Origin: Phycisphaerales bacterium
GTDB lineage: Bacteria; Planctomycetota; Phycisphaerae; SM23-33
Reading direction: 5' to 3'
Assembly: GCA_018644725.1 (NCBI GenBank)
Contig: JABGPZ010000060.1
Span: 1,622 to 65,621 of the forward strand
DNA: 64,000 nt
This document shows positions 1,676 to 30,437 of this stretch, piece after piece. Within the stretch, counting starts at the first letter, position 1; every line of letters begins with the position of its first letter. The notes under the pieces are model-generated. The model saw only the letters and a list, made by a program, of their open reading frames with translations, was not told where the DNA came from and did no database searches. The position numbers and the translations under genes are program-made.

Positions 1676-1695
1676 CAGGAGAGATCCACACCAAT

Positions 1696-1728
1696 AAAAA
1701 AAGCCCGGCCAAATGGTCGGGCTTTTTT
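1696..1728. terminator. Bidirectional intrinsic terminator between convergent kinase and hcp
   Basis: A-run, GCCCGGCCA-aa-TGGTCGGGC stem, T-run. Confidence 0.85.
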
Positions 1729-1744
1729 GTGCAGTGGTGGAGCG

Positions 1745-9951: not shown

Positions 9952-10317
9952 TTAGTCTTCCGGAGGCTTGGAATTAATCCTCTTCTCCCAGTCGAATTTG
10001 TGGAGGGTCCAGCCGTCGTATTTGCTGAGGTAGAACCAGCCGGCGGGGACGAGGGCGTTGCGCGATGTGTCGTAGACGGCGGCTTTGAGGAACGGGCCGA
10101 TCGTGTTGGTGATCAGGATCGGCGCATCAGGATGCGGCGTGATCGTCGGGCGGAACATCCCGCAGCCGGCGACCAGCGCCAGCAGAAGAACTGGTAGCAC
10201 CAGAGGCAAGATTCGCGTCGTGATTTGTCGGCGCGCTTGCTTCCGTCGTTGCGCTGGAGTTTCTTGCCTGCGACGCTGTCGTCCAAATCTCTTGATCGAG
10301 CGTAGCATTCGTTTCAT
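9952..10317 (-). CDS. Lipoprotein, putative o-spanin (Rz1-like)
   Basis: Basic N-region, hydrophobic stretch and lipobox LVAG|C, then a Pro-rich mature part. Starts inside the upstream ORF in another frame, with RBS AAAGG. Confidence 0.6.
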   Translation of the reverse strand: MKRMLRSIKRFGRQRRRQETPAQRRKQARRQITTRILPLVLPVLLLALVAGCGMFRPTITPHPDAPILITNTIGPFLKAAVYDTSRNALVPAGWFYLSKYDGWTLHKFDWEKRINSKPPED

Positions 10318-10497: not shown

Positions 10498-10692
10498 TTA
10501 TTTCTCGTCGCGGCCTTGTGTGAGGTCGAGGCCGAAGAGGTTGCCGATGGTTTTCAGCCAGGCCGAAACGGTGTCGAGCGCGGAGTCGTCGGCCGGGGTG
10601 GGCGTGAGAGCGACCACGCCGCGCGCGGCGATGTAGAGTGTGCCGACGATGGCGAAGACGTCTTTGTAGTTGGTTTGAATCCAGTCGATCAT
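10498..10692 (-). CDS. 64-aa membrane protein, holin-like
   Basis: MIDWIQTNYKDVFAIVGTLYIAARGVVALTPTPADD... with RBS AAAGGA. TM plus TPTPxDD resembles small phage lysis-cassette membrane proteins. Confidence 0.6.
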   Translation of the reverse strand: MIDWIQTNYKDVFAIVGTLYIAARGVVALTPTPADDSALDTVSAWLKTIGNLFGLDLTQGRDEK

Positions 10693-10706: not shown

Positions 10707-10988
10707 TCAGTGGCCGGGGGTGAGCCGGCCGTGGTGAAGTTCTTCGAGCAGGTGGCGCAGGATGCGCGACTGCTGGTTTTGATTGGCGGTGAATCGTGTG
10801 ATCGCGGCGGTGTTGCGCGCGATGGCATCGGCGAGCGTGCGCAGGCGTTGCTCGTCGCGGAGGATGCGCTGGAGGGCGGCGGTGAGCTGGGTTTCGCGTC
10901 GACGGGTAAGCATCCGTTCGAGCAGCCACAGCAGCCCGATCAGCCCGGCCGGGCCAAACGTAGCGAGGTTGGAAATCAGTGTACTCAT
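10707..10988 (-). CDS. 93-aa single-TM plus coiled-coil protein, holin-like (BhlA/UviB-type architecture)
   Basis: LATFGPAGLIGLLWLL TM followed by an amphipathic helix. Start overlaps the upstream stop. Confidence 0.6.
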   Translation of the reverse strand: MSTLISNLATFGPAGLIGLLWLLERMLTRRRETQLTAALQRILRDEQRLRTLADAIARNTAAITRFTANQNQQSRILRHLLEELHHGRLTPGH

Positions 10989-11953
10989 TCTGCGGGTGCC
11001 TCGATGATGTCGGTGAGTTCATAGTAAACCGTCAGCTGCAAATTCAGTGAAACCTTGCTCGAGTGCGTCCCCGATGGGACGAACAAAAGGTTGAATTGTT
11101 CCCCGTCGTCGGCGACGCGTTGCAGTGCCGAAATCAGCGCGGCGTTGGAAAGCGGTGTCAGCTGCATCGACGCGCACGTCACTTGCCCAAGCAGCGTCGC
11201 GCCCGTACCCAGCCCGCCCGTCCAGCTCGTTGACGCATCCAGGTTGTTCCACGTCGGATAGGTCCCGTCATAGGGCACCTCGGACGGGATGTGGTAGACA
11301 TCAACTACGCAGCTGTTATAGGCGAAAATTTCCAAGATCGAGTTTGGCAATATTGTCACGCCCGGCGTAATCCCCTTGGGGTCCTGGCCATAGCGGAGGA
11401 TGAAATATCCCAGTGCGCGCCTCTCCCCGTCCACCGAATTGTTGTAGACGATCATGCCCGAAAAGCAGAGGTCTGGCGAGGCGTCGGATAGCGTTGCGAA
11501 GTTGGAGACCCCCGCGATGTGCCGCACGCGATAGAGGTGTTCGAGCGCAAGGCGCAACTCGTTCATGTCTTCCGCGTCGATCCAATCTCCTTCGGCCGGC
11601 GCGCGCTTCCAGTCGTATCCCGTCGATCCGATTTGTTGGAGCAGGCCGGTCTCGTCGGGGTTCGAGGTGCTGTGGACGACGAGCGGTTTGTTCTCGTCTG
11701 CTCCCGCCAGCGGCCACACCCAGCGTTGCTGACCATAGGCCTGGCGCGGTGCAAGCAGTGTTTCGATGTCGTCGCGCAGGTCGTTGGGCGGGTCAGACGA
11801 AATAGGTCCACTCGGTGTCGGGACGGGTTCGGGCTCGGTGAAATAGATCGTGCGTCGGCGGTTGAGTTCGCTGCAGATCTCGGTGAGGTCTTCTCCGCGG
11901 GCGTGGTGCGAGATGTCAAGACGGCCGGTTTCGTTTTGTTGGAGATAGCTCAT
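10985..11953 (-). CDS. Putative tail-tip/receptor-binding protein (322 aa)
   Basis: Last gene of the structural block. Two helical 'EL' segments (EICSELNRR, DMNELRLALE) and a beta-rich C-terminus with TWNN...SWT, reminiscent of DNRLRE/CBM-like modules. Confidence 0.5.
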   Translation of the reverse strand: MSYLQQNETGRLDISHHARGEDLTEICSELNRRRTIYFTEPEPVPTPSGPISSDPPNDLRDDIETLLAPRQAYGQQRWVWPLAGADENKPLVVHSTSNPDETGLLQQIGSTGYDWKRAPAEGDWIDAEDMNELRLALEHLYRVRHIAGVSNFATLSDASPDLCFSGMIVYNNSVDGERRALGYFILRYGQDPKGITPGVTILPNSILEIFAYNSCVVDVYHIPSEVPYDGTYPTWNNLDASTSWTGGLGTGATLLGQVTCASMQLTPLSNAALISALQRVADDGEQFNLLFVPSGTHSSKVSLNLQLTVYYELTDIIEAPAE

Positions 11954-12492
11954 GTGTCTACCCGGTATTTGGCGTAGACGGGATGATCGAATGCCCAGCA
12001 GGTCTCAGAGGTCGAACTGGTCGACGCGTCGAGGGCTTCGGCGAGAACGATTTCGTCGTCGTCGAGTGCGCCGCCATCGCCGAGGTTGCGTTCGGCAAGA
12101 TTGATCGCGATGATTTCATCCGCTTCGGTGTCGTCGCTGAAGGTGCCCGCTGGGGTGACGCACTGTGGCTGAAGGGTGTATTCTGCGTCATAGCGGTGGG
12201 AGACGACTCGCGCGGCCACGGCGGTTTTCGGCGCCGAGACAGAAATGAACCATCGGCCTTCGAGGTCGATTGCGATGGCGTCGAGGTCGGCTTGGAGTTG
12301 GCCGCCGGCGGTATCGGCCTCGGCGAGATTGTAGACCTCCATTGTGTCGTCCGATTCGGTGAGGTCTTCGTTGGCATCGAGTTCGAGTTGCTTGGCGGTG
12401 TAGCGATTGTCGGCGTCGTGTGCCGTAATCCGGACCAGTCGGGCTCGGCCGGCGGCGGCCGCCTGGAGAAGATCGTGCGGTGTGGGGGACAT
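11950..12492 (-). CDS. Virion protein with two internal repeats (putative spike/OB-fold-like)
   Basis: Two ~60-aa repeats with shared pattern R(I/V)...Y-T...NLAE...GG.L. Directly follows the hub-like gene. Confidence 0.5.
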   Translation of the reverse strand: MSPTPHDLLQAAAAGRARLVRITAHDADNRYTAKQLELDANEDLTESDDTMEVYNLAEADTAGGQLQADLDAIAIDLEGRWFISVSAPKTAVAARVVSHRYDAEYTLQPQCVTPAGTFSDDTEADEIIAINLAERNLGDGGALDDDEIVLAEALDASTSSTSETCWAFDHPVYAKYRVDT

Positions 12493-12494
12493 GG

Positions 12495-14165
12495 TCAGCC
12501 TTGGAGTTCGAGGATGGTTTGCTGGTTGACGAAGTCGTGGTGCGCGCGGACCACGGCCGGGGCGCGGTTGGCTCGGCAGGACAAGCTGAGTCCTCGGCCG
12601 CCGATGCGGGGGACCAGGTCTCCTGTGCGAAAGGCCGGGTCGAGGGTCGCCAGCGCGAGAGTGGCGCGTGAGGGTCGCGTTGTGTGTGCGGCCTCGGCGA
12701 TGGCGAGCTGGCGGAGTCTCGGTGTGTCGTCGCGAACGATGGCGGGGTCGTGGTGTTTGGACGAGTCAAGGATTTCGTCGTAGTGCGCGTTGCGTTTGTG
12801 CTGGAGGATCACGTCTGGCGCATTGCGGTCCCCTTCGAGGTGGACCGAGAGCACGGCGTCGGAATCGATGGCGGCGGTGATGCGCAGCTCGGCCGTGCCC
12901 GATGCGGCGGCTTGGAAGTAGTCACCGGGAAGTTCGTCGTCGTCGAGGCGAATTGCACATCGTTCGCGACTGGCGACGACGCTGCCGGGGTAGGGCGTCC
13001 ACTCGTCTGTGGATTCCGCGCGATATTCCACGAGGAGCTTCGGACGGCTTCCATCGTCGGGGACGAAGAGCGGCGGGTGGAATTGGCGCATGCGCGAAAG
13101 GGTGAAATCGTCGTGAACCGTCGAGCAGTCGAACGCGGGAAGGGATTTGTCCGCGCCATCTTCGTTGAGGATCCAATAGCGCAGCAGGTCGCGCCGGGCC
13201 TCCCACTGTTCGCCGCGGCTTCGAACGGTCTGGGCGTAGGTGAGTTGCGAGTCGTCTTCCCAGGCGGCCGAAAGTGTGAAGGTCGATTCGTAGCGGCGCG
13301 GTGCGCCGAGGGCGTAGACGGAGGGTTGGGCCGGGCGCGCGGAGACCGTCACTGCCGCGCGGGCGAGATTGGTTTGCGAGGGGTCGAAGGTCTCGCCGGT
13401 TGGCTGAAGCTCGACGCGGCAGTATCGCCCGTCGAGGCCGGGGCGATAGAATCGCAATGTCATCCCTTCGCCCGCGATGGACAGCGATGCTTGCGCGGCG
13501 AGGCTCTCGATGGCTTGGGAAAGCGTCTTGCCGGTGAGCGTGGTTGGCGCGAGTTCGATGTCGCCCGCAAGGGACAGCAATTCGCCCCGGGACGGGGTTC
13601 CCAGGCTGGCGGCTTCGTCGCGAGCGAAGAGATAATTCAGCGCTTCGCCGACGGACCACGGGCGGGAGTCGTCGGACGAGTCGAACAGGCAGCACGCGTG
13701 GCGCAGGGCGTTCGGTTCGGTGGAGCATTGCGTTTCGTCGGTGGTGTTGAACGCCAGCGACGCGTAGCGCTGATGGAGGATGCGGCCGTCTGCGGCGAGG
13801 TGATGGCGGCCGAGGAGCGTGGAGGTCAGCGCGGTGGTGATGATCGGGGCGAGGATGGCGATGGCGGTCTCGCCGTCTTCGTCGAGGCGAAGGGAATGTT
13901 CGTCGACGATGGTTTCGAATGTAGCGGCATTCCCCATCGAGCAGACCAGTTGGACGTGTGAGCCGATGGGCGGCAGGAATCGCGTAAGGTCTCCCCAGAG
14001 CCCGCGCGGTGCGACGGCTAGCTCCCCGCGGCCAAAGGTGGGCGAGCCCAGGGCGGTCCACTCCAGCGCGACGAGGTCGTAGCGACGTTGAGAGTTGACG
14101 TAGACGCGCGGGACGAGGGGCATGGCGAGCGAGGACGAGCTGGCAAACGCGGGGAGGAGGGTCAT
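12495..14165 (-). CDS. Putative baseplate hub/Tal-like protein (556 aa)
   Basis: Real start ATG 14165 (ATGA overlap). Size, position and pattern (PPIGSHVQL, GKTLSQAIESLA...LRFYRPG, DPAFRTGDLV...VVRAHHDF..QQTILEL) fit T4 gp27/Mu gpP-like hubs. Confidence 0.55.
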   Translation of the reverse strand: MTLLPAFASSSSLAMPLVPRVYVNSQRRYDLVALEWTALGSPTFGRGELAVAPRGLWGDLTRFLPPIGSHVQLVCSMGNAATFETIVDEHSLRLDEDGETAIAILAPIITTALTSTLLGRHHLAADGRILHQRYASLAFNTTDETQCSTEPNALRHACCLFDSSDDSRPWSVGEALNYLFARDEAASLGTPSRGELLSLAGDIELAPTTLTGKTLSQAIESLAAQASLSIAGEGMTLRFYRPGLDGRYCRVELQPTGETFDPSQTNLARAAVTVSARPAQPSVYALGAPRRYESTFTLSAAWEDDSQLTYAQTVRSRGEQWEARRDLLRYWILNEDGADKSLPAFDCSTVHDDFTLSRMRQFHPPLFVPDDGSRPKLLVEYRAESTDEWTPYPGSVVASRERCAIRLDDDELPGDYFQAAASGTAELRITAAIDSDAVLSVHLEGDRNAPDVILQHKRNAHYDEILDSSKHHDPAIVRDDTPRLRQLAIAEAAHTTRPSRATLALATLDPAFRTGDLVPRIGGRGLSLSCRANRAPAVVRAHHDFVNQQTILELQG

Positions 14166-14785
14166 GATATGGCCTCGGGGAGAAGGGTGGGTGGCAAGGG
14201 CGTGCGGTCGGCGGCGGCGAGAGAATGGACCGTCAATTCCCCCGCGCTGTCCGAGCGGACAGCCCGAGCGGCGAGGGTGGTCATGCCCGCGAGGTCCAGC
14301 GGAATGCTGTAGTCGCCCGCGGCAGTCCAGGGGACAATCGCGGCGGGGCTGCCTGTGTCGATCGCACCGTTGGCGGCGAAGAGTTCGATCTGCTCGGGAG
14401 GCAGTTGGCCGTCGAGACACGTCGCGTGAAAATGGACCTGCGAGGGAGTGTCCAGTTCGGCGGTGAGTTCTTCGATGCGCGGCAGGCGGATGATCCAGTC
14501 GACGGCCGAGAGTTCGACGAGGGTTTCGACGTGGATTGTGCCGTCCTCGATCAACTCGGGCGAGACGCGGTTGGCGCGGATGCGATAGCTCGCCCCCAGC
14601 GCCAGCGGGAGGGACACGGTCGTTTCGTCGTCGGCGACGGTGGCCACGGGCAACAACGGTTCGCCGATGTGTCCCGCGCGGATGCGGATGTATCCGCCGG
14701 TCCCGATCCCCACGCGCAGGCCGCCGGTGGCGATGGCGGTGAGGGCGGGCGCATCGAGCAGGCCGTTGGGAAAGCGCAGCCGCAT
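14162..14785 (-). CDS. Hypothetical virion protein, beta-sandwich/FN3-like (207 aa)
   Basis: ATG 14785 lies just after the upstream stop. Beta-rich segments (SYRIRANRVS, TLAARAVRSD..GE). Confidence 0.55.
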   Translation of the reverse strand: MRLRFPNGLLDAPALTAIATGGLRVGIGTGGYIRIRAGHIGEPLLPVATVADDETTVSLPLALGASYRIRANRVSPELIEDGTIHVETLVELSAVDWIIRLPRIEELTAELDTPSQVHFHATCLDGQLPPEQIELFAANGAIDTGSPAAIVPWTAAGDYSIPLDLAGMTTLAARAVRSDSAGELTVHSLAAADRTPLPPTLLPEAIS

Positions 14786-14787: not shown

Positions 14788-15651
14788 TTACGCTCCCGGG
14801 GTTTCGGCGGCGGCGACGTCTTGGCGCAGGGCATCGTCGGTGACGCTTTGGGTGGTCACGGCCGCGTCGAGTTCGTTGTAGACCGTCAGCTCGGCGCTTT
14901 GGGTGGTTTCGGTTTGCCCCGTCCGCACGAAGGCGAGCTTGCTGGCGAAGCGGTGGAACAGCCAGACGAGTTGTTCGCGGAAGCTTGCGGGCTTGGCGGT
15001 GAGGGTCGTGGAGATCGAGTCCAGGCCGTCGGCTGCGAGCTTGGCCGCAGTGACCGGCGCATCGAGGTTGTCCAGCGTTGCAGCACGGGTTGCGGAATAC
15101 CCCTGGGCATCGAGCGCGGTTTGCAGGTCGGCGACCGTCGCGGGCGTGCGGTCGAACCATCGCACGGTATAGCTGTTGTCCGTCGCGGCGATGTTGGTGA
15201 GGTCGACGCGGACGCTGTCGGCAGGGCCGAGCGCGATCGGCCGCGTGAGCAAACGATAGTCACTCGTCCCGGCCGGAAGGGTCACGATTTGGCTGAGCGT
15301 GGGGGTGGTGTCGGCGTCGAGATAGAGGTCCACAGTCCAGTCGCCAGCGGAAAATTCGCCGAAGAGTTCGATCTGGATTTCTCCCGCAGCCGAGGCGAAG
15401 GGAGTGTAGCTGTCGAGGGTATCGCCGGAGGAGAGGTCCATGTTCTCGGCAGTATGGGTTCGCAGAAGTTGCACGTTCAGGTCCTCCATGGCGGCGGGGA
15501 AATCGTAGGCCGCGTCGGTGGTGATGGGGGGAAGCTCGGCGAGAAGCGCGGGCAACAGTGCGCCGTGGGTCTCGGTCGAAAGCGGGGTCGGGCTGACGAG
15601 ATGAAGCGCGTCGGCGAGGGTCAATTGGTCAATGTCGAGGGTGAATGTCAT
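14788..15651 (-). CDS. Hypothetical acidic virion protein (287 aa), possible fibre/appendage
   Basis: RBS AGGAG before ATG 15651. Thr/Asp/Ala-rich and inside the structural operon. Confidence 0.6.
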   Translation of the reverse strand: MTFTLDIDQLTLADALHLVSPTPLSTETHGALLPALLAELPPITTDAAYDFPAAMEDLNVQLLRTHTAENMDLSSGDTLDSYTPFASAAGEIQIELFGEFSAGDWTVDLYLDADTTPTLSQIVTLPAGTSDYRLLTRPIALGPADSVRVDLTNIAATDNSYTVRWFDRTPATVADLQTALDAQGYSATRAATLDNLDAPVTAAKLAADGLDSISTTLTAKPASFREQLVWLFHRFASKLAFVRTGQTETTQSAELTVYNELDAAVTTQSVTDDALRQDVAAAETPGA

Positions 15652-15662: not shown

Positions 15663-16121
15663 CTAGACTGCGTCGGGCAGTGCGCGGAAGAGACACGCGC
15701 CGCGGCAGTCGACGATGTCTTCGAGATCGTAGCTACCCGAGGTGACGGTGATCGTGGCCAGCGGGAGATGCGCAGCGGTGGGGAAGCCATAGGTCTCGAC
15801 CGTCAGTTCGCCCGCGTCGTCGAGATAGATCGAGTTGACTGCGTTGTCGGTGAGGGCCTGGGTTTGGCTGCCGGCATAGAGAACGACGGCCCCGGCGGAG
15901 CTGGTGAATCGACCGGCGCGGACTCCAAAGGTTGCGCTGCCATCCTGGAAGACGCGGAAGTCGCCCGCTCGCCGCGCCACGGTAAGAAGCTGGGCGATCA
16001 TGCGGTAGAAGCTGGTGTAGTATGGCGATTCATAGATCGCGACAAACGGCACGCCGGTGTCGGCGTCGGTGGTGCCCGAGAGGGCGTTGAGCGAATCATC
16101 GCTGGGAAGCAGTTCAGACAT
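15663..16121 (-). CDS. Putative baseplate upper/fibre-attachment protein (152 aa)
   Basis: RBS GGAGG. C-terminal LPLATITV...IVDCR resembles the LPLA.v.v....I.D.R motif of BppU-like tail proteins. Confidence 0.55.
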   Translation of the reverse strand: MSELLPSDDSLNALSGTTDADTGVPFVAIYESPYYTSFYRMIAQLLTVARRAGDFRVFQDGSATFGVRAGRFTSSAGAVVLYAGSQTQALTDNAVNSIYLDDAGELTVETYGFPTAAHLPLATITVTSGSYDLEDIVDCRGACLFRALPDAV

Positions 16122-16812
16122 GGGAAACCTCCAGGGTCAGGTGCTGAGTGGCAGGGTCATAGGCCGTCGGGGCAATCGCCGCAAGGGACGCGGGGGCAAC
16201 GCGGGCGGCGAGTGTGGAATCAATGGGCTCGGACAGTGAATCGCCATTGCGCGTTTGGAGCCGAATCCGCAGCAGGCCGCTACGGGGTGCGCACAGGCGA
16301 AGGGAGATCTCTTCGGCGTCGAAGCCGAATGCTCCCGCGCCGAAGGCTCCGCGTCCAAAGCCCGGGGCGAGGTCGCCGTCGATACCGAATCCGCCGCGGC
16401 CCAATTGGCCCTGGCCAAAGCCCCAGTGCAGATGGGTCTCGTCCCAGATCGTGGCGGAGTCGGCCAGGCGATAGTCCCCACCGAGGCCGTCGTCGCAGAG
16501 AAGCTCGACGCGTTCGCCGGGCAGGTGGCAGGTGCGGCGCATTACGCGATGGCGATGGTGCCAGTCGGGCGGGGGCAGGGATTCGGCGCGGTGGCGATCA
16601 GCCCAGCTGCAGGCGCGGACGCTGGCGCTGGTGGGTGCGCTGGTGGCGCGAAACAGGAAGGTGCGCTGGGCGGGTGTGTTGGTGACGTCGGCGATCTCGC
16701 CATCGAGATAGAGCTGGTGGTACGCTTCGTCGGCGCTGGACTCGAACGTCAGGGCCCACTGGCCCGGCTGGGCGGCGGGACGAACAGAGACAATGGTTGC
16801 CTCGGCGGTCAT
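16114..16812 (-). CDS. Hypothetical virion protein with a GFG-repeat segment (232 aa)
   Basis: ATG 16812 overlaps the upstream TGA. Contains WGFGQGQLGRGGFGIDGDLAPGFGRGAFGAGAFGFD. Confidence 0.6.
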   Translation of the reverse strand: MTAEATIVSVRPAAQPGQWALTFESSADEAYHQLYLDGEIADVTNTPAQRTFLFRATSAPTSASVRACSWADRHRAESLPPPDWHHRHRVMRRTCHLPGERVELLCDDGLGGDYRLADSATIWDETHLHWGFGQGQLGRGGFGIDGDLAPGFGRGAFGAGAFGFDAEEISLRLCAPRSGLLRIRLQTRNGDSLSEPIDSTLAARVAPASLAAIAPTAYDPATQHLTLEVSHV

Positions 16813-17582
16813 GATGCCAGTTCCCGATATTCGAGGGTGTAGCTGCAATTGCAGCCGCTGGCGGTGAGGCGGATTTCGCCGGGCGCGAAACTCTCAAGAA
16901 GCAGATTGGCGTAGACGCGCGTGTCGTCGGTGAGTTGATGAAGTTGGTGGGTTTGGCAGGCGATGATGGCCTGGATGCGGCTTTCGAGACTGGCGCGAGT
17001 GGCCCCGGCGAGAGTGCCGCGCTGGGTGATGGTGCGACTGCGACGGCCGAGGGGCATGACCATCTCACCATCGAGGCCGGGGAATCCGCGGCGGAGGGTT
17101 TTGTGGACCCAGCTGGAAATCTCCAGTCGCGCCGGGCCGGACGAGAACAGCGCATTGCCATCGAGCAGCAGCTCACATGCGTCGGCCGAATCGTCGAAGT
17201 GGCAGGCTACATCCAGAGTTGCGCGCGGGCCATCGAGGCGGATCGCACGGACGGCGGTGGCGTCGCCGGCGGGGAGGTCTTCGCAGAGGCCTTCGCGGGT
17301 GGGGTCGTCCAGCAGCGTTTCGCTGACGAGCTCGGCCAGGTCCATCGCGCGGGCGCGTGCGGCGAGTTTGTTGTCGGCGCTGGTACGGATTTCAACGCTT
17401 AGCTCGAGCTGTTTTTGTCCGCGGCAGTGTTTCGTTGAGACGTCGTTGACGGCCTCGACGATGACGCAGGCGTTGGGCGTGTCGCCGTCGTTGGCTTCGC
17501 GCCCGGACGAGACCCACGCCAGCTCATCCATGGCCCGGAGAGTTTCGACGATGTGATCGAGAATGGTCGCTGCGTGTTGCAT
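16809..17582 (-). CDS. Putative tail-terminator-like plus distal-tail/tube-initiator-like fusion (257 aa)
   Basis: RBS GGAGG before ATG 17582. The N-half ends in LLDDPTREGL (terminator-like). The C-half has FPGLDG...LGRRSRTITQRGTL...YTLEYRE (Dit/P2 gpU-like). Confidence 0.5.
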   Translation of the reverse strand: MQHAATILDHIVETLRAMDELAWVSSGREANDGDTPNACVIVEAVNDVSTKHCRGQKQLELSVEIRTSADNKLAARARAMDLAELVSETLLDDPTREGLCEDLPAGDATAVRAIRLDGPRATLDVACHFDDSADACELLLDGNALFSSGPARLEISSWVHKTLRRGFPGLDGEMVMPLGRRSRTITQRGTLAGATRASLESRIQAIIACQTHQLHQLTDDTRVYANLLLESFAPGEIRLTASGCNCSYTLEYRELAS

Positions 17583-17584: not shown

Positions 17585-18229
17585 TTACCTCCGGCGAAGT
17601 TGGACGTTGGCCAGCGAACGTGACGTGTCGCGTTGGGCGTCGGCGTCGGTGTCGGTGACGAGGGTGAGTTGGGTCCGAAGGCGCCGCGCTTCGGCGCGAT
17701 AGTGTTCGGCCTTGATCCAGTTCAGGTCGTCCTGGGCGGCTTTTTGACAGCGGCCAAGGAAGATCGCTGCCAGCGCACGAAAGGCGCATAGCCGCCGGAG
17801 TTGATCGCTGGGGGAAAAGTCGTCGGCGTCGAAATCGACTTCACTTTGGGCGCGAAGCTCTTCGCCGAGAGCGGCGGAGGCTTCGGTACTGTGCGCGGCA
17901 AAGGTGCGCACGCGCCAGGAAAGCCCGGTTGCGTCGGGCGGGGCGACGGGGCCGTCGGTGCTGGACGTGCGCAACAGGGAAACGCTTAGGGCGGTGGGGG
18001 AATCGACGGACAGAATTTCGCAGCAGGTGCCCTCGGCGGGGATGGTTGCGCTGGTCGTGAGGACCATGCCCGGGAGAATGCTGGCGGCGAAGCTGGCCGA
18101 GGCACTGGTGAACGCGCCTGCGGCAAGCGCGCCGTCGTCGCCGGCGGCAAATTGCTGGCAGGCAGAGCCCTGGAGGAACACGAGAGGTTCAAGGGCCAAA
18201 AGATCGCGGTCGGTGCAGAACAAAGTCAT
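17585..18229 (-). CDS. Putative head-tail adaptor/head completion protein (214 aa)
   Basis: Immediately after the capsid gene, with RBS GAGG. FCTDRDL N-terminus and a helical C-terminus (QLRRLCAFRALAAIF...KAEHYRAEA) ending in a beta-strand. Confidence 0.6.
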   Translation of the reverse strand: MTLFCTDRDLLALEPLVFLQGSACQQFAAGDDGALAAGAFTSASASFAASILPGMVLTTSATIPAEGTCCEILSVDSPTALSVSLLRTSSTDGPVAPPDATGLSWRVRTFAAHSTEASAALGEELRAQSEVDFDADDFSPSDQLRRLCAFRALAAIFLGRCQKAAQDDLNWIKAEHYRAEARRLRTQLTLVTDTDADAQRDTSRSLANVQLRRR

Positions 18230-18331: not shown

Positions 18332-19486
18332 TTAGGCATTCAAGCCGGTGATCATGCCGTGGGCAAGCTCGTTGCGGAATTCGAGGGAATATTCCCCGAT
18401 CAGCTCGCCCGCTTCATAGTCGCCCGTGGACGCGAGCGGTTTGTAGTGGAAGCTGCGCCCAACGAGCGGCAGAACGTCAACGCGGCTGGAATCCAGCAGC
18501 ACGACCGTGTCGGTGGGCACGTTGCGCGAGAGCAGCACACGGCAGACGCCGAAGTCGCTTTCGTAGATGCTCACCATGTCGCGGTAGGTTTCGTCCTGGG
18601 TGGTGTAGCCGCGCGAGGCCGTGATGAAGTTGTTGATGCGGCGCTTCTGGGCACCGTTGACGACGATGGTGTCGATGCGGCTGGACGCGTTTTCCCACAC
18701 CAATCGCAGTGCGAGATTCAGCTGGGCCTCGGTGAGGGCCGCGTCGGAGGGGAAGCTGCTCGCCCCAGGCACAAACGCGTTGGTCGAGATCGAGGGAATG
18801 ATGCCCTTCATCGTGCGGCGCACGCTGGACGAGCCTTCGGGGTTGGCGGCCGGGGACGTGCCGTTGAGGACGGTGTTCTCCAGGTCGCGCAGCAATTCGC
18901 GCAGACGTTCCTGCTTCTGATAGTCCAGCTCGTCGGCCACGGCGAGCTTGCGCACGGCGAGGTCGCTGCCGGAAACGCGCAGGGCCGAGGTGAAGATTTG
19001 GGTCCAGTTGCCGCGCCGTTGGCGGTTGGTGAACCGTGCAGCCGGAGCGTCGTCCCCTTCGAGTGCGGCGTTGCCGAGAATGTGCAGCGTGTCGGTGTCG
19101 GCCAGCTCTTGGGGGGTCGTGCTGCCATAGCCGCGCTGGATCGTCAGCGTGTTGCTCGACACGGCCGTGATGAACATCAGCTCTTTGGAGCCGGCCGCCT
19201 GGACTTGGTCGCCGACGCGGAAGCGCTCGCCGTTGGCAACGGTGATCGACGTGGTATCTTTGGATGCGTCATCGAGGCTGTCGTGGTCGATGACATCTTT
19301 GTTGGGCAGAAGGGTGTCTTCGAGCCACTCGTGATAGGTGCTGGTGGCTTCGCGGGGCGCGTCGCCGAGATGGTCGAGCAGGGGCGTCTCGTAGGGGCTG
19401 ACGATGCTGATGATGTCAGAGACATCTTCGGCGAGGTCTTGGAGCGATGCTCCGCTGGAATACGTTGCTTTGCCTGTAAAACTCAT
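18332..19486 (-). CDS. Major capsid protein, SU10/DUF5309-like HK97 fold (384 aa)
   Basis: EDVSDII..VSPYETPLL, HEWLEDTL, ALEGDDA, NWTQIF...VSGS, ELDYQ...ELLRDLE, R.MKGI, YESDFG, GELIGEYSLE..NELAHG.ITGL. RBS AAAGGA. Confidence 0.88.
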   Translation of the reverse strand: MSFTGKATYSSGASLQDLAEDVSDIISIVSPYETPLLDHLGDAPREATSTYHEWLEDTLLPNKDVIDHDSLDDASKDTTSITVANGERFRVGDQVQAAGSKELMFITAVSSNTLTIQRGYGSTTPQELADTDTLHILGNAALEGDDAPAARFTNRQRRGNWTQIFTSALRVSGSDLAVRKLAVADELDYQKQERLRELLRDLENTVLNGTSPAANPEGSSSVRRTMKGIIPSISTNAFVPGASSFPSDAALTEAQLNLALRLVWENASSRIDTIVVNGAQKRRINNFITASRGYTTQDETYRDMVSIYESDFGVCRVLLSRNVPTDTVVLLDSSRVDVLPLVGRSFHYKPLASTGDYEAGELIGEYSLEFRNELAHGMITGLNA

Positions 19487-19571: not shown

Positions 19572-20021
19572 TTACTTCAGAGATCGTCGCAGGCGCAGGT
19601 AGGCCGTGAGGTCGCGACGGTTGCCGCTTTGGGCGGCGCGACGGGCGGTGTCGTCGAGGCGAACCTGGTCAGAGGCGACGGGGTTGGCAGCCGGGGCGCT
19701 CATTGGCGGCAGGGGTGCAGCCAGCGGCGGCGCGGGGGCGGGCTTGAGGAAGGGTTTGTCGTCGAGCAATGCGCCGAGTGCGTCGCGGGTGGCTTGGGCG
19801 TCGAGCGGGGCCGAGCAGTCCATGCGCGCCCGGAGCAGTGTTTCGCACGTCTCGGGGTCGATGGGTTTGGCCTCGCGCAGGGCCGTGTCGAGCAGATGTT
19901 GGTTGCTCTGTTCGAGAAGTTGCTGAGCGAGTTGGTCGCGCTGGGAGGTCATATCGTCGAGGTCGGTTTGGACGGTTTCGAGTGTGGCCTCGGGCGGGGG
20001 AGTGGCGTTGGGATCGGTCAT
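19572..20021 (-). CDS. Putative capsid scaffolding protein (149 aa)
   Basis: Lies between portal and capsid. Acidic coiled-coil, Pro-rich linker and basic C-terminal helix (DLTAYLRLRRSLK). Confidence 0.7.
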   Translation of the reverse strand: MTDPNATPPPEATLETVQTDLDDMTSQRDQLAQQLLEQSNQHLLDTALREAKPIDPETCETLLRARMDCSAPLDAQATRDALGALLDDKPFLKPAPAPPLAAPLPPMSAPAANPVASDQVRLDDTARRAAQSGNRRDLTAYLRLRRSLK

Positions 20022-21490
20022 TCGGCAGAGTCCTCCACGCTGGCGCGGTCATAGCCCAATTCGGCGAGGATGCGGTCCTGGCTGATGCCGAGTTGCTGCT
20101 TGAGGCGGGCGTTTTCGAGTTGATGGGTTTCGTCGTTGGGGAGCGGGTCGGGGAAGAGGACATCGATTTTTCGCTCGGCGGGCGTGGTGGCGAAGAGGTT
20201 ACTTCGGTCGAGGAAGTCCAGCGCGAGTTCCATCAATGCCCCCAGGCCGGTCGCAAAGGTCAGCCGCTTGCGGGCGGTGCGGCTGAGTAGGCCGCTGAGC
20301 ATCACACGCAGGGCGGTTGCGCTGGAGAGGTTGCCGATTTGGCCGCGCAGAATGCCCGCAGCGAGGGGCGTGACGCCCGAGAGCTTGTCGAGGCCCTGGC
20401 GAATTTGATCGATGTGCAGGTCTTCGGAAGGGCTGCCGTCGTCAGCGCCAAACTCTTCGATGCTGGCGTTGAGGTTGCCGGTGGCCCACATTTGGCCCGG
20501 GCCGACAGGGCGTTCGAGGAAGTCGTCGATGCCCTTGCCGAGATACATCTTGAACGATTGATACGTCACGCGGTGGGCGCGGTCGCACAGGCGTGTGTTG
20601 AGCTCGTCCTGCAGCGGGATCATCGGCTCGACGTCGCTGAAGCCGGCATAACTGCCGGGCGCGGCGATGTTCTGGATGTGGACGATGGGCAGGCGCCCCA
20701 GGGCGTTGGGGCCTTGGGCAACGAGGCGGCGGTTTTCGTAGCGCTGCCACCAGGAGGGCGAAAGGATCTCGACGATCTCGGTGGGCTTGGGCGACGAGGG
20801 TGTGCGGTTGAGCAGTCGGCGGATCGCGCCGGATTTGGTCGGCTCGGTACTCGAGCGGAAGTAGCGCTGAACCCAGTAGCGAGTCTGGCGGTAGTTGTCC
20901 GATTCGAGGATCGGAATCACACGCGGCGCTTCGATGGGTTCCAGGCGCAGGTTTCCTGCGGCGGCGATGGCGGTTTCGAGCGGGTCGTCGCTGGGGGGGA
21001 TGGATTCTGCGAAGTTGGCGGGGACGCGCAGGGCGACATCGACAAATCCGTAGACACTCGCGAAGAGGGCCATTTCTTCGAGGAGCAATTCCGAGCCGTT
21101 GGCGGCCAGGAGTGCGCCGAGGATTGCTTCGATGGCTTCGGCGCGAGCGGGGTCGGTGGCGCGACTTCGAAGGGTGACACCGCGGCCGAAGAGATAGTCG
21201 ACCATAGTGTTCACGCGCCATGCGATGTCGTTTTCGATGACGACTTCTTTGCGGCCTGCGTTGGGGCCCGCGCCGGGTTCGCCCGTGATGCGCGGGGGAA
21301 GGCCTTCTTCCTGCGCAAGGCGATAGGCTCGGCCCTGTTCGCCGCTGGGGGCGGGGGTCATGGGGTTTCGGTAGTAGTTCCACAGCCGTCGGTAGAGCGG
21401 TTCCTGGGCGGGCGAAAGCTGATCGATCAGCCAACGGACATGCTCGTCGTGAAGTGTGGAATCCTGGAAGGGTGCAAGTTCAAATGTCAT
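20018..21490 (-). CDS. Phage portal protein, SPP1 gp6-like (490 aa)
   Basis: LWNYY, ENDIAWRVNTMVDYLFG, NALGRLPIVHIQN...GFSDVEPMIPLQDELN, GNLSSATALR, LGISQDRILAELGY. RBS GAGGAG. Confidence 0.9.
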   Translation of the reverse strand: MTFELAPFQDSTLHDEHVRWLIDQLSPAQEPLYRRLWNYYRNPMTPAPSGEQGRAYRLAQEEGLPPRITGEPGAGPNAGRKEVVIENDIAWRVNTMVDYLFGRGVTLRSRATDPARAEAIEAILGALLAANGSELLLEEMALFASVYGFVDVALRVPANFAESIPPSDDPLETAIAAAGNLRLEPIEAPRVIPILESDNYRQTRYWVQRYFRSSTEPTKSGAIRRLLNRTPSSPKPTEIVEILSPSWWQRYENRRLVAQGPNALGRLPIVHIQNIAAPGSYAGFSDVEPMIPLQDELNTRLCDRAHRVTYQSFKMYLGKGIDDFLERPVGPGQMWATGNLNASIEEFGADDGSPSEDLHIDQIRQGLDKLSGVTPLAAGILRGQIGNLSSATALRVMLSGLLSRTARKRLTFATGLGALMELALDFLDRSNLFATTPAERKIDVLFPDPLPNDETHQLENARLKQQLGISQDRILAELGYDRASVEDSAE

Positions 21491-24269: not shown

Positions 24270-24520
24270 CCGCTCTTTGCAAATTTTTGGGAATTTCTTT
24301 CTCAAACCCACAAATCGCGGCCCCGAAGGGCTTCATTCTGTGTTTTCTTTCAAAAACGAAAATAGTACTTGCAAAATTTTCTAAATTCGCTTCAATAGAT
24401 GGCTTCTTCCTGCGTTGATCACAGGAGAGCTAGAAACCAATGGACCCCTATCGCGCCTCGCTTTGGGAGCTACTTTATCGTGGCCTCGAGTCGAGCGCTT
24501 ACCCCAAGGAGATTGGATTG

Positions 24521-25825
24521 ATGAGTCAGCATACCAAGATTTCACGCCGACGGTTTTTGACCTCGGCCACCGCCGCGGCAGCGTTGCCGATGATTGTTCC
24601 TTCCAGTGTATTTGGCGCCAATGCCCCCAGCGAGCGGATCGAACTGGCGGGGATCGGCATGGGCGGCCGTGGCGTGGGGAATATGAAAAACCTGATGAAC
24701 CAAAAAGGTGTTCAGGTCGTTGCGACGTGTGATGCGGACCTCCTTAAGGCCCAGAGCTTTGCGCGATACGCTGAGGGCAAGCAGGGGCAAAAGGGCGTCA
24801 AGGTTTATCAGGACTACCGCGAGCTTCTCGCGAAGACGTCCTGTGACGCGGTGATGATTGGCACGCCGGACCACCTTCATGCCGTGATCGGTATTGCCTG
24901 TGCCAATGCGGGCAAGGACATCTATGGCGAAAAGCCGTTCGCGCGCTACATCAAAGAAGGCCGCGCACTGGTCAATGCCGTCGAACGCAATGGTGTGATT
25001 TGGCAGACCGGCAGCTGGCAGCGTAGCAAGAAGAGTTTCCGCCATGCGTGCGAGCTCGTTCGCAATGGCCACATGGGCAAGATCACGAAGATTACCATCG
25101 GCTTGCCCGCAGGTTGGGGCAGCTACGACAAGTACAAGGCTCCCATCAAGCCGCAGGCGGTTCCCAAGACTTTGGACTATGATTTGTGGCTTGGCCCGGC
25201 GCCGTGGTCTCCCTACTACAAAGAGAAGGTTACCTATTCCTGGCGCCTGATCAGCGATTATGGCGGCGGCAAGCTGCTCGACTGGATTGGTCACCACGGC
25301 GACATCGCTCAGTGGGGCCTTGGCCGCGACAATTCTGGCCCGTGCAAGTGTACCCCCGGCAAGATTACCTATCCCACGCACGGCCTTTTCGACACGCCGA
25401 TCCAATACAAATACACCCTCGAATATGATGATGGCATTGAGGTCGAAATTGGTGACGACAAGCAGGTGCCCAAGGGGTGCCGGTTCTGGAATGACAAGGG
25501 CGAATGGCTGGAGGTTTCTCGCAGTGATCTCACGGCGTCGAATAAGGCGTTGCTCAAGACCGTCATTGGTCCGGGCGAAACGCGATTGTACCATTCGAGC
25601 GACCACGAAGCCAACTGGACCAGCTGCATCCGGTCTCGCAAGCAGACCATCACACCAGCAGAAACCGCGCACCGTTCGGTGACGCTGGGGCACTTGTGCC
25701 TGATCGCCGAACGCCTCGGGCGGACGGTCAACTTCGATCCCAAGACGGAATCGTTCCTCAAAGATCCCGCCGCACAGGCCCTCACGCAACGCGCATACCG
25801 CGCTGGCTGGGAACTGCCGCTGTAG
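24521..25825 (+). CDS. Tat-exported Gfo/Idh/MocA oxidoreductase
   Basis: SRRRFL Tat motif, GIGMGGRG, TPDHLH, GKDIYGEKP, QTGSWQRS, DLWLGPAP. RBS AAGGAG. Confidence 0.93.
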   Translation: MSQHTKISRRRFLTSATAAAALPMIVPSSVFGANAPSERIELAGIGMGGRGVGNMKNLMNQKGVQVVATCDADLLKAQSFARYAEGKQGQKGVKVYQDYRELLAKTSCDAVMIGTPDHLHAVIGIACANAGKDIYGEKPFARYIKEGRALVNAVERNGVIWQTGSWQRSKKSFRHACELVRNGHMGKITKITIGLPAGWGSYDKYKAPIKPQAVPKTLDYDLWLGPAPWSPYYKEKVTYSWRLISDYGGGKLLDWIGHHGDIAQWGLGRDNSGPCKCTPGKITYPTHGLFDTPIQYKYTLEYDDGIEVEIGDDKQVPKGCRFWNDKGEWLEVSRSDLTASNKALLKTVIGPGETRLYHSSDHEANWTSCIRSRKQTITPAETAHRSVTLGHLCLIAERLGRTVNFDPKTESFLKDPAAQALTQRAYRAGWELPL

Positions 25826-25866
25826 CTTCGACCCCTTTTCGATAGACCTCTCATAAGGATATACCC

Positions 25867-28800
25867 ATGAAGACAAAATATACCATACTGCTGCTCCTGC
25901 TGGCGACGACGTTCGCTGTCGCGGCCAAGCCGATTGCAAAACTCGAATCGTTCCAATTCAATCCGGACCAACAAAAGGTTCTCACACCGATTGAAAAGTC
26001 CATCTGGCAGACCAAGCCCGCCGACCGTGCCAATTGGGAAGCCAAGCTTCTCGCGACGCTTGAGTCGCCCAAGGCGACCGTTGACGGCAAGATCATCATT
26101 CTTCGCCGCCTGCTTCCGTCCGTGATTTCCGAGAAGAGCGTCGCTGTTGTCGCGCCGCTGCTGCTCGATGCAAAGCTCACCGATGACGCCCGTGGCGTGC
26201 TGCAGAATTATGATGCACCCTCGGCCGCAGAAGCCCTTCTTGCCGCACTCCCCAAGGCTAAGGGCAAAACCAAGCTGGGCCTCGTTCAGTCGCTCGGTTT
26301 GTGCCGCAGCCCTGCTGCTGTCGCGGCGGTCAAGGCTGCGCTCTATAGTGATTCGTGCGACGCGAGCCTGATGCGTGCCTGCCTGACGGCCCTCGGCAAC
26401 ATTGGCGACAAAGCCGCTGGCGAGCATCTCCTCGGCATCCAAGGCTTCAAGGCCTTCCAGACGACGCTGAATGACGCGACGCTGATTGCCTCGGCGCACC
26501 TCGCCGCAGAAGGCCAATCTGGACTTGCCACAAAGCTCGCCAAGAAGGTGTATGCGGGCGAGGCTGCAACAACGGGTCAAAAGAATTCAGCGCTCCGGTG
26601 TTTGCTGAAGGCCGATCCAGTTGCCTCGGTTGGACAAGTGATTCAGGTGGCAAAAGACAACAAGTACGCCAAAGCACTTTTGGGCATGATGCCTGCGGGC
26701 AAGGCCTGCACCATCGCGTTTGGCGAGACATTGATTAAGCAGAATGCGTTGGCAGAACCGGGGATGCTCCAGCTGTTGTTGGACCGTGAAGATCCCGCAG
26801 CCATGCCTGTTGTTTGTGAGGCGCTCAAAGGCAAGCTCGCTTCGAGCGACCGGGATGCGGCGATGGAATTCGTTGGCCAATTCGGAGCCCTGTCCGACTT
26901 GGGCTGGTTACTCAAAGAATTCAAGGCAGGCAACAAGACGGCCGCGGAGGCGTTGATGGCTCTCAATGCCGACGGCGTCGAAGACGAACTGCTCGCCAAG
27001 GCCGAAACCGATGCATCACTCATCGCGATTCTTGCTGGGCGCAGAGCCCAAGCGGCATTGCCGATGATGATTGCCCAGCTCAAGAAACCCACCAACTCCA
27101 GCGCGGTCAAGGCTGCTGCCAGCGCTGTCCCTGTGATGGCAGGCGAAAAAGACCTTCCCGCATTGATTGATGCGCTGCTGGCGAATCCCAAATCGACCGT
27201 CACCAAGGTCGTCGTTGCCGTCGCCGTCAAGGGTAAGGGCTCGGCTCAGACGGCCGGCTTGGTCGCTGCGATGCCTAAGGCATCGGCGAAGGCGCAAGGC
27301 GAACTTCTCTCCGCGTTGGCACAGATCGGCGGGGGCGATGCCCTCAAGGCCGTCAAGGCCCAGATGGCCTCCAAGGACGAAGCCGTTGCCGACGCCGCCA
27401 CTCGCGCACTGTGCGGCTGGAAGTCTGTCGAAGCGATGGGCGAGCTGAAAACGCTCGCAGCCTCCACCAAGAACGCGACGTACAAAGTTCTCGCGGTGCG
27501 CGGCTATCTCACGCTGGCGGACACGCAGCTTGATTCCCGTCGCGGCGGGACCAAGTCCAATGTCGCGACGATCGGCAAGATTCTTCCTCAGTGCAGCCGC
27601 CCGGAAGAAAAGCGCATGGCCATCAGCATCCTGAAAAAATGCTATTGCAGCGAATCGATTGCGATGCTGAAAACGCTGGCCAAGGACGAAGCCGTCGCCA
27701 AGGAAGCCGCCGACGCGATCAAGGCCGCCGACAAAAAGAACAAGCCGAAGAAGTCCAAAAACAAAAAGAAGTCGTCCAAGAAATCGAGTGCGGGAAATGA
27801 CGCCGCTTTTTCCACGGCCCCCTCTACCACATCTTCTGCTCCAGTCAAAAAAACCAAAAAGACCAAAAAAGCCAAAGAGCCTAAAAAGATCGAAGAGCTT
27901 AACCAGGCCGCACCCGTCACCGAAAAATGGGTCAGCCTCTTTGATGGCAAAACCCTCACGGGCTGGGAGCGCCACGGTGGCAAGGCGGACTACAAAGTCG
28001 AAGATGGTGCGATTGTCGGCACGTCGCGCCCCAAGACGCCCAACACGTTCCTCTGCACCACCCGCGAATATGGGGACTTTGCCCTCGAATATGAATACTT
28101 CCCGCACGACCACCTCAACTGCGGCGTGCAGTTCCGCAGCAAGATTCGCGAAAAAGATGACCGCGTGTATGGCTACCAATGCGAAATCGACCCGTCGAGT
28201 CGCGCGTGGAGCGCGGGCGTGTTCGGTGAAGCGAGTCGCGGCTGGCTGAACCCGGTCGAATGCCCCAAGGCCCAGGCCGCCTACAAGCCCGGCGAGTGGA
28301 ACAAGGTGCGCATCGTCTGCATCGGCCACTCGATCCGGACCTATCTCAATGGCGTGCCCGTCGCGGACCTGTTCGACAAGGATGAAAAAGAAGGCATCAT
28401 CGGCCTGCAGGTCCACAGCGTGGGTAAGAACAATACTCCGATGAGCATCAAATGGCGCAACCTGCGCATCATGGAACTCGCCCCGACCAACACCGTCGCA
28501 CTGTTGGACGCGCCGGCTGACTCGATGGGCAAGGTTGCCCCGCGCGGCGCGACGGTTCTGATCGCACCCGGCAAGGGTCTCGACGCGTGGACTGTCAGCA
28601 GCTATAAGCCCAAATGGATGACCAACCAGCAAAAAGGCAAACTGCAGTGGACCGTGGATACGAAGACGGGCATCGCTACCGTGAAACCAAAAACTGGCAG
28701 CATGGTCAGCAAGAAAAAATTCGGCGCGCAACGGATTCATGTCGAATTCTGCACACCGGAGTCGACGGAAACCTCACCCGAGAAATCGGGCAATTCGGGC

Positions 28801-29226
28801 ATCTTCATTCAGGATCGCTACGAGTTGCAGATTTGCAACACCGCCGGCCTCAAGCCCGAAGCGCAGTACTGCGGCGGCATCTATCGCCAGCGTAAACCCG
28901 ACGTCAATGCTGCGAAAAAACCCGGCGAGTGGCAGGTCTATGACATCTACTTCATTCCCGCGAAATTCAAGGGTAAGAAGAAAGTCGCCAATGCCCGCGT
29001 GAGCGCCAAGCTCAACGGCCAATGGATTCACCGCGATGCGGCCATCACGGGAAATACTGGCCCGGGTCCCAAAGAGGACGCGTCCAATCAGTCGCTGGTG
29101 TTGCAGGATCACGGCCAAGAGGTGAAGTTCCGCAATGTCTGGGTCTGCGATCTGGACCATCCCGAAACACTCGGCCAGTATGACCCTCGCAAAAAAGGCG
29201 CGGACCGCAACTCCCGCATGAAGTAG
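25867..29226 (+). CDS. Secreted HEAT-repeat protein with two DUF1080 (3-keto-disaccharide hydrolase-like) domains
   Basis: Signal peptide, HEAT-like helical repeats and a Lys-rich linker. DUF1080 motifs LFDGKTLTGW/NCGVQFRS/GYQCEID/IGLQVH and HVEF/GNSGIFIQDRYELQI/LQDHG..VKFRNVW. Confidence 0.88.
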   Translation: MKTKYTILLLLLATTFAVAAKPIAKLESFQFNPDQQKVLTPIEKSIWQTKPADRANWEAKLLATLESPKATVDGKIIILRRLLPSVISEKSVAVVAPLLLDAKLTDDARGVLQNYDAPSAAEALLAALPKAKGKTKLGLVQSLGLCRSPAAVAAVKAALYSDSCDASLMRACLTALGNIGDKAAGEHLLGIQGFKAFQTTLNDATLIASAHLAAEGQSGLATKLAKKVYAGEAATTGQKNSALRCLLKADPVASVGQVIQVAKDNKYAKALLGMMPAGKACTIAFGETLIKQNALAEPGMLQLLLDREDPAAMPVVCEALKGKLASSDRDAAMEFVGQFGALSDLGWLLKEFKAGNKTAAEALMALNADGVEDELLAKAETDASLIAILAGRRAQAALPMMIAQLKKPTNSSAVKAAASAVPVMAGEKDLPALIDALLANPKSTVTKVVVAVAVKGKGSAQTAGLVAAMPKASAKAQGELLSALAQIGGGDALKAVKAQMASKDEAVADAATRALCGWKSVEAMGELKTLAASTKNATYKVLAVRGYLTLADTQLDSRRGGTKSNVATIGKILPQCSRPEEKRMAISILKKCYCSESIAMLKTLAKDEAVAKEAADAIKAADKKNKPKKSKNKKKSSKKSSAGNDAAFSTAPSTTSSAPVKKTKKTKKAKEPKKIEELNQAAPVTEKWVSLFDGKTLTGWERHGGKADYKVEDGAIVGTSRPKTPNTFLCTTREYGDFALEYEYFPHDHLNCGVQFRSKIREKDDRVYGYQCEIDPSSRAWSAGVFGEASRGWLNPVECPKAQAAYKPGEWNKVRIVCIGHSIRTYLNGVPVADLFDKDEKEGIIGLQVHSVGKNNTPMSIKWRNLRIMELAPTNTVALLDAPADSMGKVAPRGATVLIAPGKGLDAWTVSSYKPKWMTNQQKGKLQWTVDTKTGIATVKPKTGSMVSKKKFGAQRIHVEFCTPESTETSPEKSGNSGIFIQDRYELQICNTAGLKPEAQYCGGIYRQRKPDVNAAKKPGEWQVYDIYFIPAKFKGKKKVANARVSAKLNGQWIHRDAAITGNTGPGPKEDASNQSLVLQDHGQEVKFRNVWVCDLDHPETLGQYDPRKKGADRNSRMK

Positions 29227-29243
29227 AAAGGCGACACGACGAC

Positions 29244-30413: not shown

Positions 30414-30437
30414 ATTCACACAGAGTAAGGACCAGAC

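Follow-up and report, generated by a model that had tools for sequence, protein, structure and literature searches.

Among the genes of a 64,000-nucleotide stretch of the genome of a marine Phycisphaerales bacterium (contig JABGPZ010000060.1 of assembly GCA_018644725.1, positions 1,622 to 65,621 of the forward strand; the whole stretch is called the window below), one encodes a protein of 257 amino acids (aa) in which a tail-terminator domain is followed, in the same reading frame, by a domain of the Dit or tube-initiator type. In the usual view, rings of these two kinds close the opposite ends of a tail tube whose length a tape-measure protein sets. The preferred reading, at roughly 60%, is that the fusion is functional and that its two ring-forming parts build a two-tier ring, which would join the connector under the head directly to the tail tip. 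The tail of the particle would be stubby, because the cluster to which the gene belongs contains no recognizable gene for a tube, sheath, chaperone or tape measure. The gene and its two parts are located as follows.

16809..17582, minus strand: fusion gene, a single open reading frame (ORF) of 257 aa
17178..17582, minus strand: N domain of the fusion, residues 1-135, tail-terminator fold, from structure alignment of the model
16809..17177, minus strand: C domain of the fusion, residues 136-257 plus the stop codon, Dit N-domain/tube-initiator fold, from structure alignment of the model

Two Tail Folds in One Protein

The folds were assigned from an AlphaFold2 model based on an alignment of 123 rows that combined fused with split relatives, with a predicted local distance difference test (pLDDT) score of 94.6 and a predicted TM-score (pTM) of 0.69. 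This model replaced a first one made from four sequences (pLDDT 60), of which only the terminator half had found matches. The model was aligned by VIA-align with 48,161 representatives of the PDB, and 50 entries were shown. Residues 1-135 align with tail terminators at Z 13-14.6 and a root-mean-square deviation (rmsd) of 2.1-2.8 Å over 117-127 residues. These include the terminators of P74-26 (9oab_Fa, Z 14.6) and Chi (8vhx_C, 14.1), T5 p142 (8bcp_C), the R2 pyocin collar (6u5f_A) and lambda gpU (3fz2_A), all three at 13.5, and those of RcGTA (6tba_4A) and Mu (9khy_1), both at 13.2. The terminator fold, a four-stranded antiparallel β-sheet with two α-helices, is found in the DSSP assignment as a helix at residues 2-16, strands, a helix at 72-92, and further strands.

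Residues 136-257 align with the N-terminal ring domain of Dit and tube-initiator chains at Z 9-11. The highest scores belong to the monocin tip (9j1k_K, 11.0), the 80alpha Dit (6v8i_AC, 10.9), Pa193 (9b45_V, 10.3), Pam3 (10.0) and the SPP1 Dit (2x8k_A, 9.9), followed at 9.4-9.7 by Milano, TP901-1 (4v96_AS), the A-1(L) 'baseplate-initiators', the Mu baseplate (9ki1_0) and the R2 pyocin baseplate (6u5b_h); Dit/initiator chains of p2 and PVC are matched as well. Of the 50 entries shown, those in which the alignment is confined to residues 136-257 are all baseplates or tips, and no tube is among them. The aligned ranges cover only the N-terminal parts of targets 240-446 aa long, and the ring domain of the fusion ends at residue 257, with no classical siphophage Dit C-terminal galectin-like/OB domain or other peripheral domain.

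Foldseek agrees with both folds, matching the C half to the SPP1 Dit with an E-value of 1e-4. In BFVD the top-ranked matches are uncultured-virus proteins of 246-384 aa, in which both halves align at high rmsd, and the best single-domain matches are a 123-aa 'DNA circulation, N-terminal' protein (TM-score 0.76) and several 'tail completion' proteins of about 145 aa. The assignments of an earlier note on this DNA, made from the sequence alone, a gpU/gp17-type terminator for the N half and a Dit/tube initiator for the C half, are thus supported by both structural comparisons, and all peptide strings quoted there are present in the translation. The fusion itself falls into no Pfam or PHROG family, terminator families included, and a profile search of PDB sequences with it returned nothing credible. 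Among the 123 relatives, 14 match phrog_4204 ('tail terminator'), two match PF11367 (Tail_completion_gp17) and one matches DNA_circ_N. The top Foldseek match of the whole protein, 9gb5_H (272 aa), which we take to be phiCD508 gp53, aligns at 207 residues over both halves; as a two-domain analogue of the fusion it was rejected, its rmsd being 11.8-13 Å and its domain arrangement different.

A Genuine and Maintained Fusion

The fusion gene is closely integrated with its neighbors. A GGAGG and the stop codon of the preceding gene lie in front of its ATG at 17582, its own stop (TGA, 16809-16811) overlaps the ATG of the downstream gene g232, and translation is coupled on both sides. The junction between the halves (about nucleotides 17165-17195) is bridged without differences or gaps by Logan contigs of two metagenome runs, X1 and X3, while the Logan contig of run X2 extends about 34 nucleotides beyond it; the identical sequence is present in metagenome contigs from three studies. 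One of the runs X1-X3 may be the source sample. Because these contigs bridge the junction without difference, the fusion is not an artifact of this assembly.

A word-based search found three relatives, and their profile was then used in a HMMER search of 1.84 billion representatives, which gave 286 matches at E<=0.001. The best 150 of the 286 are mostly stand-alone proteins that cover either residues 2-131 of the query only (about 140-146 aa) or residues 137-255 only (about 121-123 aa), so that the division into two genuine, independent units drawn in the earlier note stands. When 152 retrieved proteins were scanned with domain hidden Markov models (HMMs), 79 carried C only, 49 N only and 21 N followed by C (one of them a 166-aa fragment); two further proteins contained a third module, X, described in the next section, once as X-C and once as N-X, and one had none of the three. 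Members with a source name all come from Planctomycetota or Phycisphaerae metagenome-assembled genomes (MAGs). A tblastn search of 50,697 phage records with the fusion, a stand-alone C (P0036) and a stand-alone N (P0022) gave no match, and no relative of the fusion was found in IMG/VR with two alignments.

In a tree of the C domain (89 rows, 123 columns) fused forms occupy at least three well-supported clades, namely the window protein with P0002 and P0003 (support 100), P0034 with P0072 and P0075 (99), and P0070 with P0111, P0023 and P0150 (96). The best tree needs seven state changes, and well-supported branches force only one; a supported split (96) sets the lineages that lack N apart from those that have it. 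In one fused cluster there are 26 members, all drawn from Planctomycetota MAGs, and 14 fused proteins share 25 invariant columns distributed across both halves.

Gene X and the Modules of Related Loci

Matches were found in 16 of 401 Planctomycetota genomes, in which both halves share one frame only in the genome of the window. Fourteen loci were compared with the window, four from Phycisphaerae/Planctomycetota MAGs and ten regions from genomes of the phylum. The gene order is the same in 13 fetched loci, with housekeeping flanks in the three places that are annotated; capsid identity is 60-75%, and the order of the cluster is kept across families of the class. What differs is the content of the segment between g214, the gene just upstream of the fusion, and g232. 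The HMM scans gave these architectures:

N-X-C: L003, L004, L005 and L033, where the start and stop codons overlap
N·C fused: the window and L002
X-C: L031 and L032, by HMM
C alone, about 60 nucleotides after g214: L025-L028

In L029 and L030, which share a family with L031, the place of X is taken by a gap the size of an ORF that gave no HMM match, and L034 gave no match in the scan. Where the genes are split, N encodes about 143 aa and C about 121 aa, with X (134-136 aa) between them. New here is the modular make-up, from relative to relative, of the stretch that links connector and tail tip. The earlier note had asked whether homologues would also be fused and always lack tape-measure and tube genes: most are split, and most split forms have the X gene of about 135 aa in between, but in the related loci examined the cluster indeed contains no tape-measure-sized gene.

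The other two neighboring pairs are fused in turn, N with X in P0092 (16 cluster members) and X with C in P0032. These fusions suggest adjacency and equal stoichiometry; by Rosetta-stone logic they argue that N, X and C would be neighbors of equal copy number, in that order. X itself is missing from the genome of the window, which is 95% complete: no tblastn match fell below E 0.06, and 34,116 six-frame ORFs searched by HMM contained nothing significant. Family searches found no Pfam, PHROG or PDB match for X, and hhalign detected no similarity of X to the C half or to the fused alignment (probability 0.2 and 0.1). Two weak leads point to a tube protein. Pfam Phage_tube_2 matches two of 36 family members (best E 0.0012), and in one neighbor cluster in the ESM Atlas, at rank 27, 14% of the members carry Phage_tube_2.

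One of the X-C loci, L032 (G238:C1:636200-656199), is a truncated copy of the cluster that consists of portal, scaffold, capsid, g214, X and C. Genes for SPOR, DinB and PdxA proteins lie within about 2 kb after C, and no homologue of g232, g152, g556, g180 or g322 was detected in this locus.

The Head-and-Tail Gene Cluster

The fusion gene is the fifth of 14 ORFs in a co-directional, tightly packed cluster of 11.5 kb with a portal-scaffold-capsid-short-tail organization, and all 14 are intact and tightly coupled. It is followed by ORFs of 232, 152, 287, 207, 556, 180, 322, 64 and 121 aa, so that the longest ORF of the cluster is 556 aa. Its flanks are unremarkable parts of a chromosome: a gene for a VWA protein borders one end, and genes for a deoxynucleoside kinase and an FtsX permease border the opposite end. 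In order of transcription, the genes around the fusion are as follows.

20018..21490, minus strand: portal protein (Pfam SPP1_portal 6.4e-15; phrog_104 2.2e-20)
19572..20021, minus strand: scaffold-like protein (by position; the homologue in L032 matches Pfam Phage_scaffold, 1.4e-8)
18332..19486, minus strand: major capsid protein (Pfam SU10_MCP, PF17236, E 1.7e-85)
17585..18229, minus strand: g214, candidate portal-side connector between capsid and fusion (by position and conservation in 11 loci)
16114..16812, minus strand: g232, conserved, with Gly-rich GFG repeats in its center
15663..16121, minus strand: g152, conserved module of about 150 aa, candidate fiber anchor (tblastn and ORF lengths in 8 loci)
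14788..15651, minus strand: g287, no homologue detected in related loci
14162..14785, minus strand: g207, no homologue detected in related loci
12495..14165, minus strand: g556, putative largest conserved tail-tip protein (conserved in 8 loci)
11950..12492, minus strand: g180, conserved
10985..11953, minus strand: g322, conserved
10498..10692, minus strand: g64, small hydrophobic protein at the cluster end (phrog_9685, 6.6e-5)
9952..10317, minus strand: g121, predicted lipoprotein at the cluster end (lipobox-like LVAGC in the translation)

Pfam and PHROG scans of the 14 ORFs found no tube, sheath, chaperone, tape-measure, baseplate or terminase family, and adaptor/nozzle families had no match among them either, which bears out the earlier description of the operon as one without recognizable tube, sheath, chaperone or tape measure. 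No recognizable tube or tape-measure gene follows the terminator domain, the next module being the Dit-like domain of the same polypeptide, and that domain does not lie between tape-measure and Tal/hub genes: the terminator domain and g214 precede it and g232 follows. The capsid family occurs in cultured podophages as well as siphophages (best identity 33%), and the type of tail is therefore not settled by the capsid.

Several of the conserved proteins are without a recognizable relative of known function. This is the case for g214, which has no Pfam, PHROG or PDB sequence match (a PPR match in PDB sequences at 4e-4 had no passing stretch and was judged spurious), and for g232, which matches no Pfam or PHROG family, hub family or PDB sequence. 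A profile search of PDB sequences with g556 gave no credible match, and its neighbors in the ESM Atlas are viral hypothetical proteins of about 500 aa. In g232 the stretch between the N-terminal and C-terminal domains is conserved and contains repeated GFG/GAFG motifs, with the consensus GFGxxQFGxGGFGxDGxxAPGLGxGAFGAGxFGxDA.

The product of g152 corresponds to the conserved N-terminal 150 or so residues of relatives that are 241-589 aa long and have variable C-termini (L002-L005, L025-L028). Such a pattern is typical of a fiber or spike anchor with swapped receptor-binding parts, for which g152 is a candidate. In one relative the gene after the g152 homologue encodes a Laminin_G_3 domain; in the window the anchor module stands alone, and the next two genes have no homologues in the fetched loci.

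Beyond the cluster, the region 24440-40591 of the window encodes several sulfatases, GFO/IDH/MocA oxidoreductases and a 1119-aa protein with HEAT and 3-keto-disaccharide hydrolase domains. A context rich in sulfatases and oxidoreductases is typical of polysaccharide-degrading Planctomycetota.

Two viral contigs of IMG/VR carry a lone SU10-type capsid gene (L039:7023-8180 and L040:5970-7121), 70% and 61% identical to that of the window, with no adjoining portal, g214, N, X or C. Its neighbors are early or replication genes (RecT, a PD-(D/E)XK nuclease, methylases, Lar and DnaB), and L039 also encodes a small and a large terminase at a greater distance downstream. A capsid gene of the host particle that is carried by a phage could act as a decoy or serve a hijack.

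Tube and Terminase Genes Elsewhere in the Genome

The genome (2.54 Mb in 112 contigs, 95% complete) contains no match to PF10145 (PhageMin_Tail), PF04984 (Phage_sheath_1) or PF18906 (Phage_tube_2), and six Pfam large-terminase families have no match anywhere in it; nor does a terminase gene lie beside the cluster. One Phage_tail_2 match (28.4 bits, above the cut-off) lies on the 3,075-bp contig C78 (C78:1-3075; L035 covers 914-3075), together with a chaperone-like ORF and the tape-measure-like N-terminus of an ORF that is cut off by the contig end. The same contig carries paralogues of g64 (69% identity) and g121 (47%), beside a TsaA-like gene. Genome G068 contains a complete lambda-like prophage, one part of which is homologous to the tube/chaperone/tape-measure block of C78; this prophage has a GpA terminase of its own, a lambda-family portal, a capsid and a 662-aa tape measure. 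Phage_tail_2 occurs in only one of five cluster-bearing relatives, and three of the four without it are assemblies of one or two contigs. From these comparisons C78 is read as a piece broken from another prophage, of siphovirus type, a reading that does not account for the paralogues of g64 and g121 beside it.

A Proposed Two-Tier Ring and Its Alternatives

In the proposed assembly, a gpU/gp17-type N domain is linked by about eight residues to a C domain of the Dit-N/Mu gp43-N type. The arrangement most likely originated by loss of gene X, which lies between the N and C genes in related loci. Solved terminators and Dit/initiator rings are hexamers and the two modules are here joined 1:1 through about eight residues, and therefore the fusion is expected to form a hexamer, like both parent families, with one tier stacked on the other. 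Of the two tiers, the upper would dock on a connector made by the 214-aa protein under the portal, and the lower tier would bear the downstream tail-tip proteins, that is g232, the g152 fiber-anchor module, g556, g180 and g322. The tail would then be stubby and podovirus-like, a few stacked rings with no tube between them. How many rings lie between connector and tip in the relatives would seem to depend on which of the genes are present, C alone, X-C, N·C or N-X-C. The earlier note had proposed that the fusion docks a siphovirus- or myovirus-type baseplate on the neck, giving a stubby particle. Such a docking is conjectural: the downstream proteins match no known baseplate family, and the upstream 'adaptor', g214, belongs to no recognizable family.

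Several observations weigh against such a structure. The genome does encode a Phage_tail_2 tube gene and a tape-measure-like N-terminus, beside paralogues of two cluster genes, and it is 95% complete and divided among 112 contigs. Any of g214, g232 and g556, which are without a recognizable fold, could be an unrecognized tube or short tape measure; short tape measures reportedly exist, that of RcGTA being about 220 aa. The only leads for X are the weak ones to a tube protein, and if X is not a ring protein the picture of counted rings becomes weaker. The terminator tier is absent in many relatives, in which C directly follows g214 (L025-L028), and it may serve a role other than coupling. What the analysis shows is the two folds, the fusion, the loss of X, the modular architectures and a cluster without recognizable tube or tape-measure genes, whereas hexameric rings, their order of stacking, the docking partners and the shape of the particle are inferred.

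Three other explanations were weighed. The fusion may be functional in a particle with an ordinary tube, supplied by an unrecognized ORF of the cluster or in trans, for example by the C78 block, so that it would act at one end only or as an assembly intermediate. The gene content of C78, with its paralogues of g64 and g121, and the several cluster proteins without a recognizable fold speak for such a tube. Nonetheless, it is unlikely given the homology of the C78 block to part of a separate complete prophage, the presence of Phage_tail_2 in one relative in five, and the 1:1 tie of terminator to Dit-like domain, whose linker of about eight residues leaves no obvious room between them. A little less probable still is that the cluster is the remnant of a decaying prophage that makes no functional particle, and that the fusion is a neutral scar of the deletion that removed X. 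Decay would fit the absence of X from the genome and the failure to find a large terminase beside the cluster or, for the six Pfam families, anywhere else, and no RNA-seq run was listed as containing the stretch. It is countered by the intact and tightly coupled state of all 14 ORFs, by a gene order kept across families of the class at a capsid identity of 60-75%, by the recurrence of fused proteins in several clades, including a fused cluster with many members, and by the invariant residues retained in both halves.

The least probable of the three holds that the C domain is itself a short tube of several stacked rings built without a tape measure, with N capping the last ring only; the tail would be short rather than of 'zero length'. 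Dit N-domains and tube proteins are described as sharing the tail-tube fold (PMC11784142), and C is the sole module present in every architecture. Yet a 1:1 fusion places a terminator domain on each C subunit, which should block stacking on that face, and the structural matches to the C half alone, among the entries shown, are baseplate or tip proteins, not tubes. The two-tier ring between connector and tail tip is thus preferred.

Implications

A natural protein in which the two caps are joined would demonstrate that a tail can be built from such modules with neither tube nor ruler, which bears on how short and long tails evolved from one another. The reading without tube and ruler is strengthened because relatives insert and delete ring genes and fuse every neighboring pair. 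A wider proposition is tentative and on balance doubtful: the Phycisphaerae would maintain a domesticated particle of head and tail, the tail having neither tube polymer nor tape measure, and its length would be set by the number of ring modules (terminator-like N, X and Dit-like C) that are encoded and fused, at one, two or three tiers. If true, it would be a case of tail building independent of a tape measure and a living intermediate between podovirus-type and siphovirus- or myovirus-type tails. The fusion provides a handle on the architecture of a widespread, undescribed Phycisphaerae particle, as well as a minimal ring-stack scaffold for structural study.

Comparison with Known Systems

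Searches of the literature, at the level of listings and abstracts, turned up no account of the cluster or of a protein that fuses a terminator to a Dit domain. Terminators and Dit/initiator rings are described as hexamers at the two ends of the tube, with known terminators capping a tube whose gene follows and whose length is set by the tape measure (PMC11784142). Residues 1-135 have the same fold as the tail terminators of lambda (gpU), SPP1 (gp17), T5 (p142), the R2 pyocin collar and RcGTA, and the fusion gene likewise comes just after head and connector genes. It differs from these in lacking a recognizable downstream gene for a tube or tape measure and in the covalent link between its terminator domain and a Dit-like one. 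Residues 136-257 match the N-terminal tube-like domain of Dit and initiator proteins, among them those of SPP1 (gp19.1), TP901-1, 80alpha, Mu (the 'DNA circulation' N-domain of gp43), pyocin, PVC and monocin. Unlike in those proteins, the Dit-like half consists of the ring domain of about 120 aa only, and the gene has no flanking tape-measure or recognizable Tal/hub gene.

Two-domain neck proteins built on a terminator domain are represented by phiCD508 gp53, identified as the tail terminator (PMC11948020), and by PVC16, reported to carry a second terminator-like domain (PMC11784142). The extra domains of these proteins bind the sheath or repeat the terminator fold, whereas that of the fusion is Dit-like, and the tubes of both systems are long.

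At the level of the whole cluster, the nearest comparison is with gene transfer agents of the RcGTA type and other domesticated particles, which are likewise chromosomal, conserved head-and-tail gene clusters without an integrase. The RcGTA cluster is said to encode terminase, protease, tube and tape measure and to produce a siphovirus-like tail. None of these four is recognizable in the Phycisphaerae cluster, in which the Pfam and PHROG scans found no terminase, tube or tape measure. As with RcGTA, the cluster is kept across related host species, with 16 of 401 Planctomycetota genomes matching and 13 loci sharing its order. Relative to all of these systems, the fusion is a set of known modules in a new combination.

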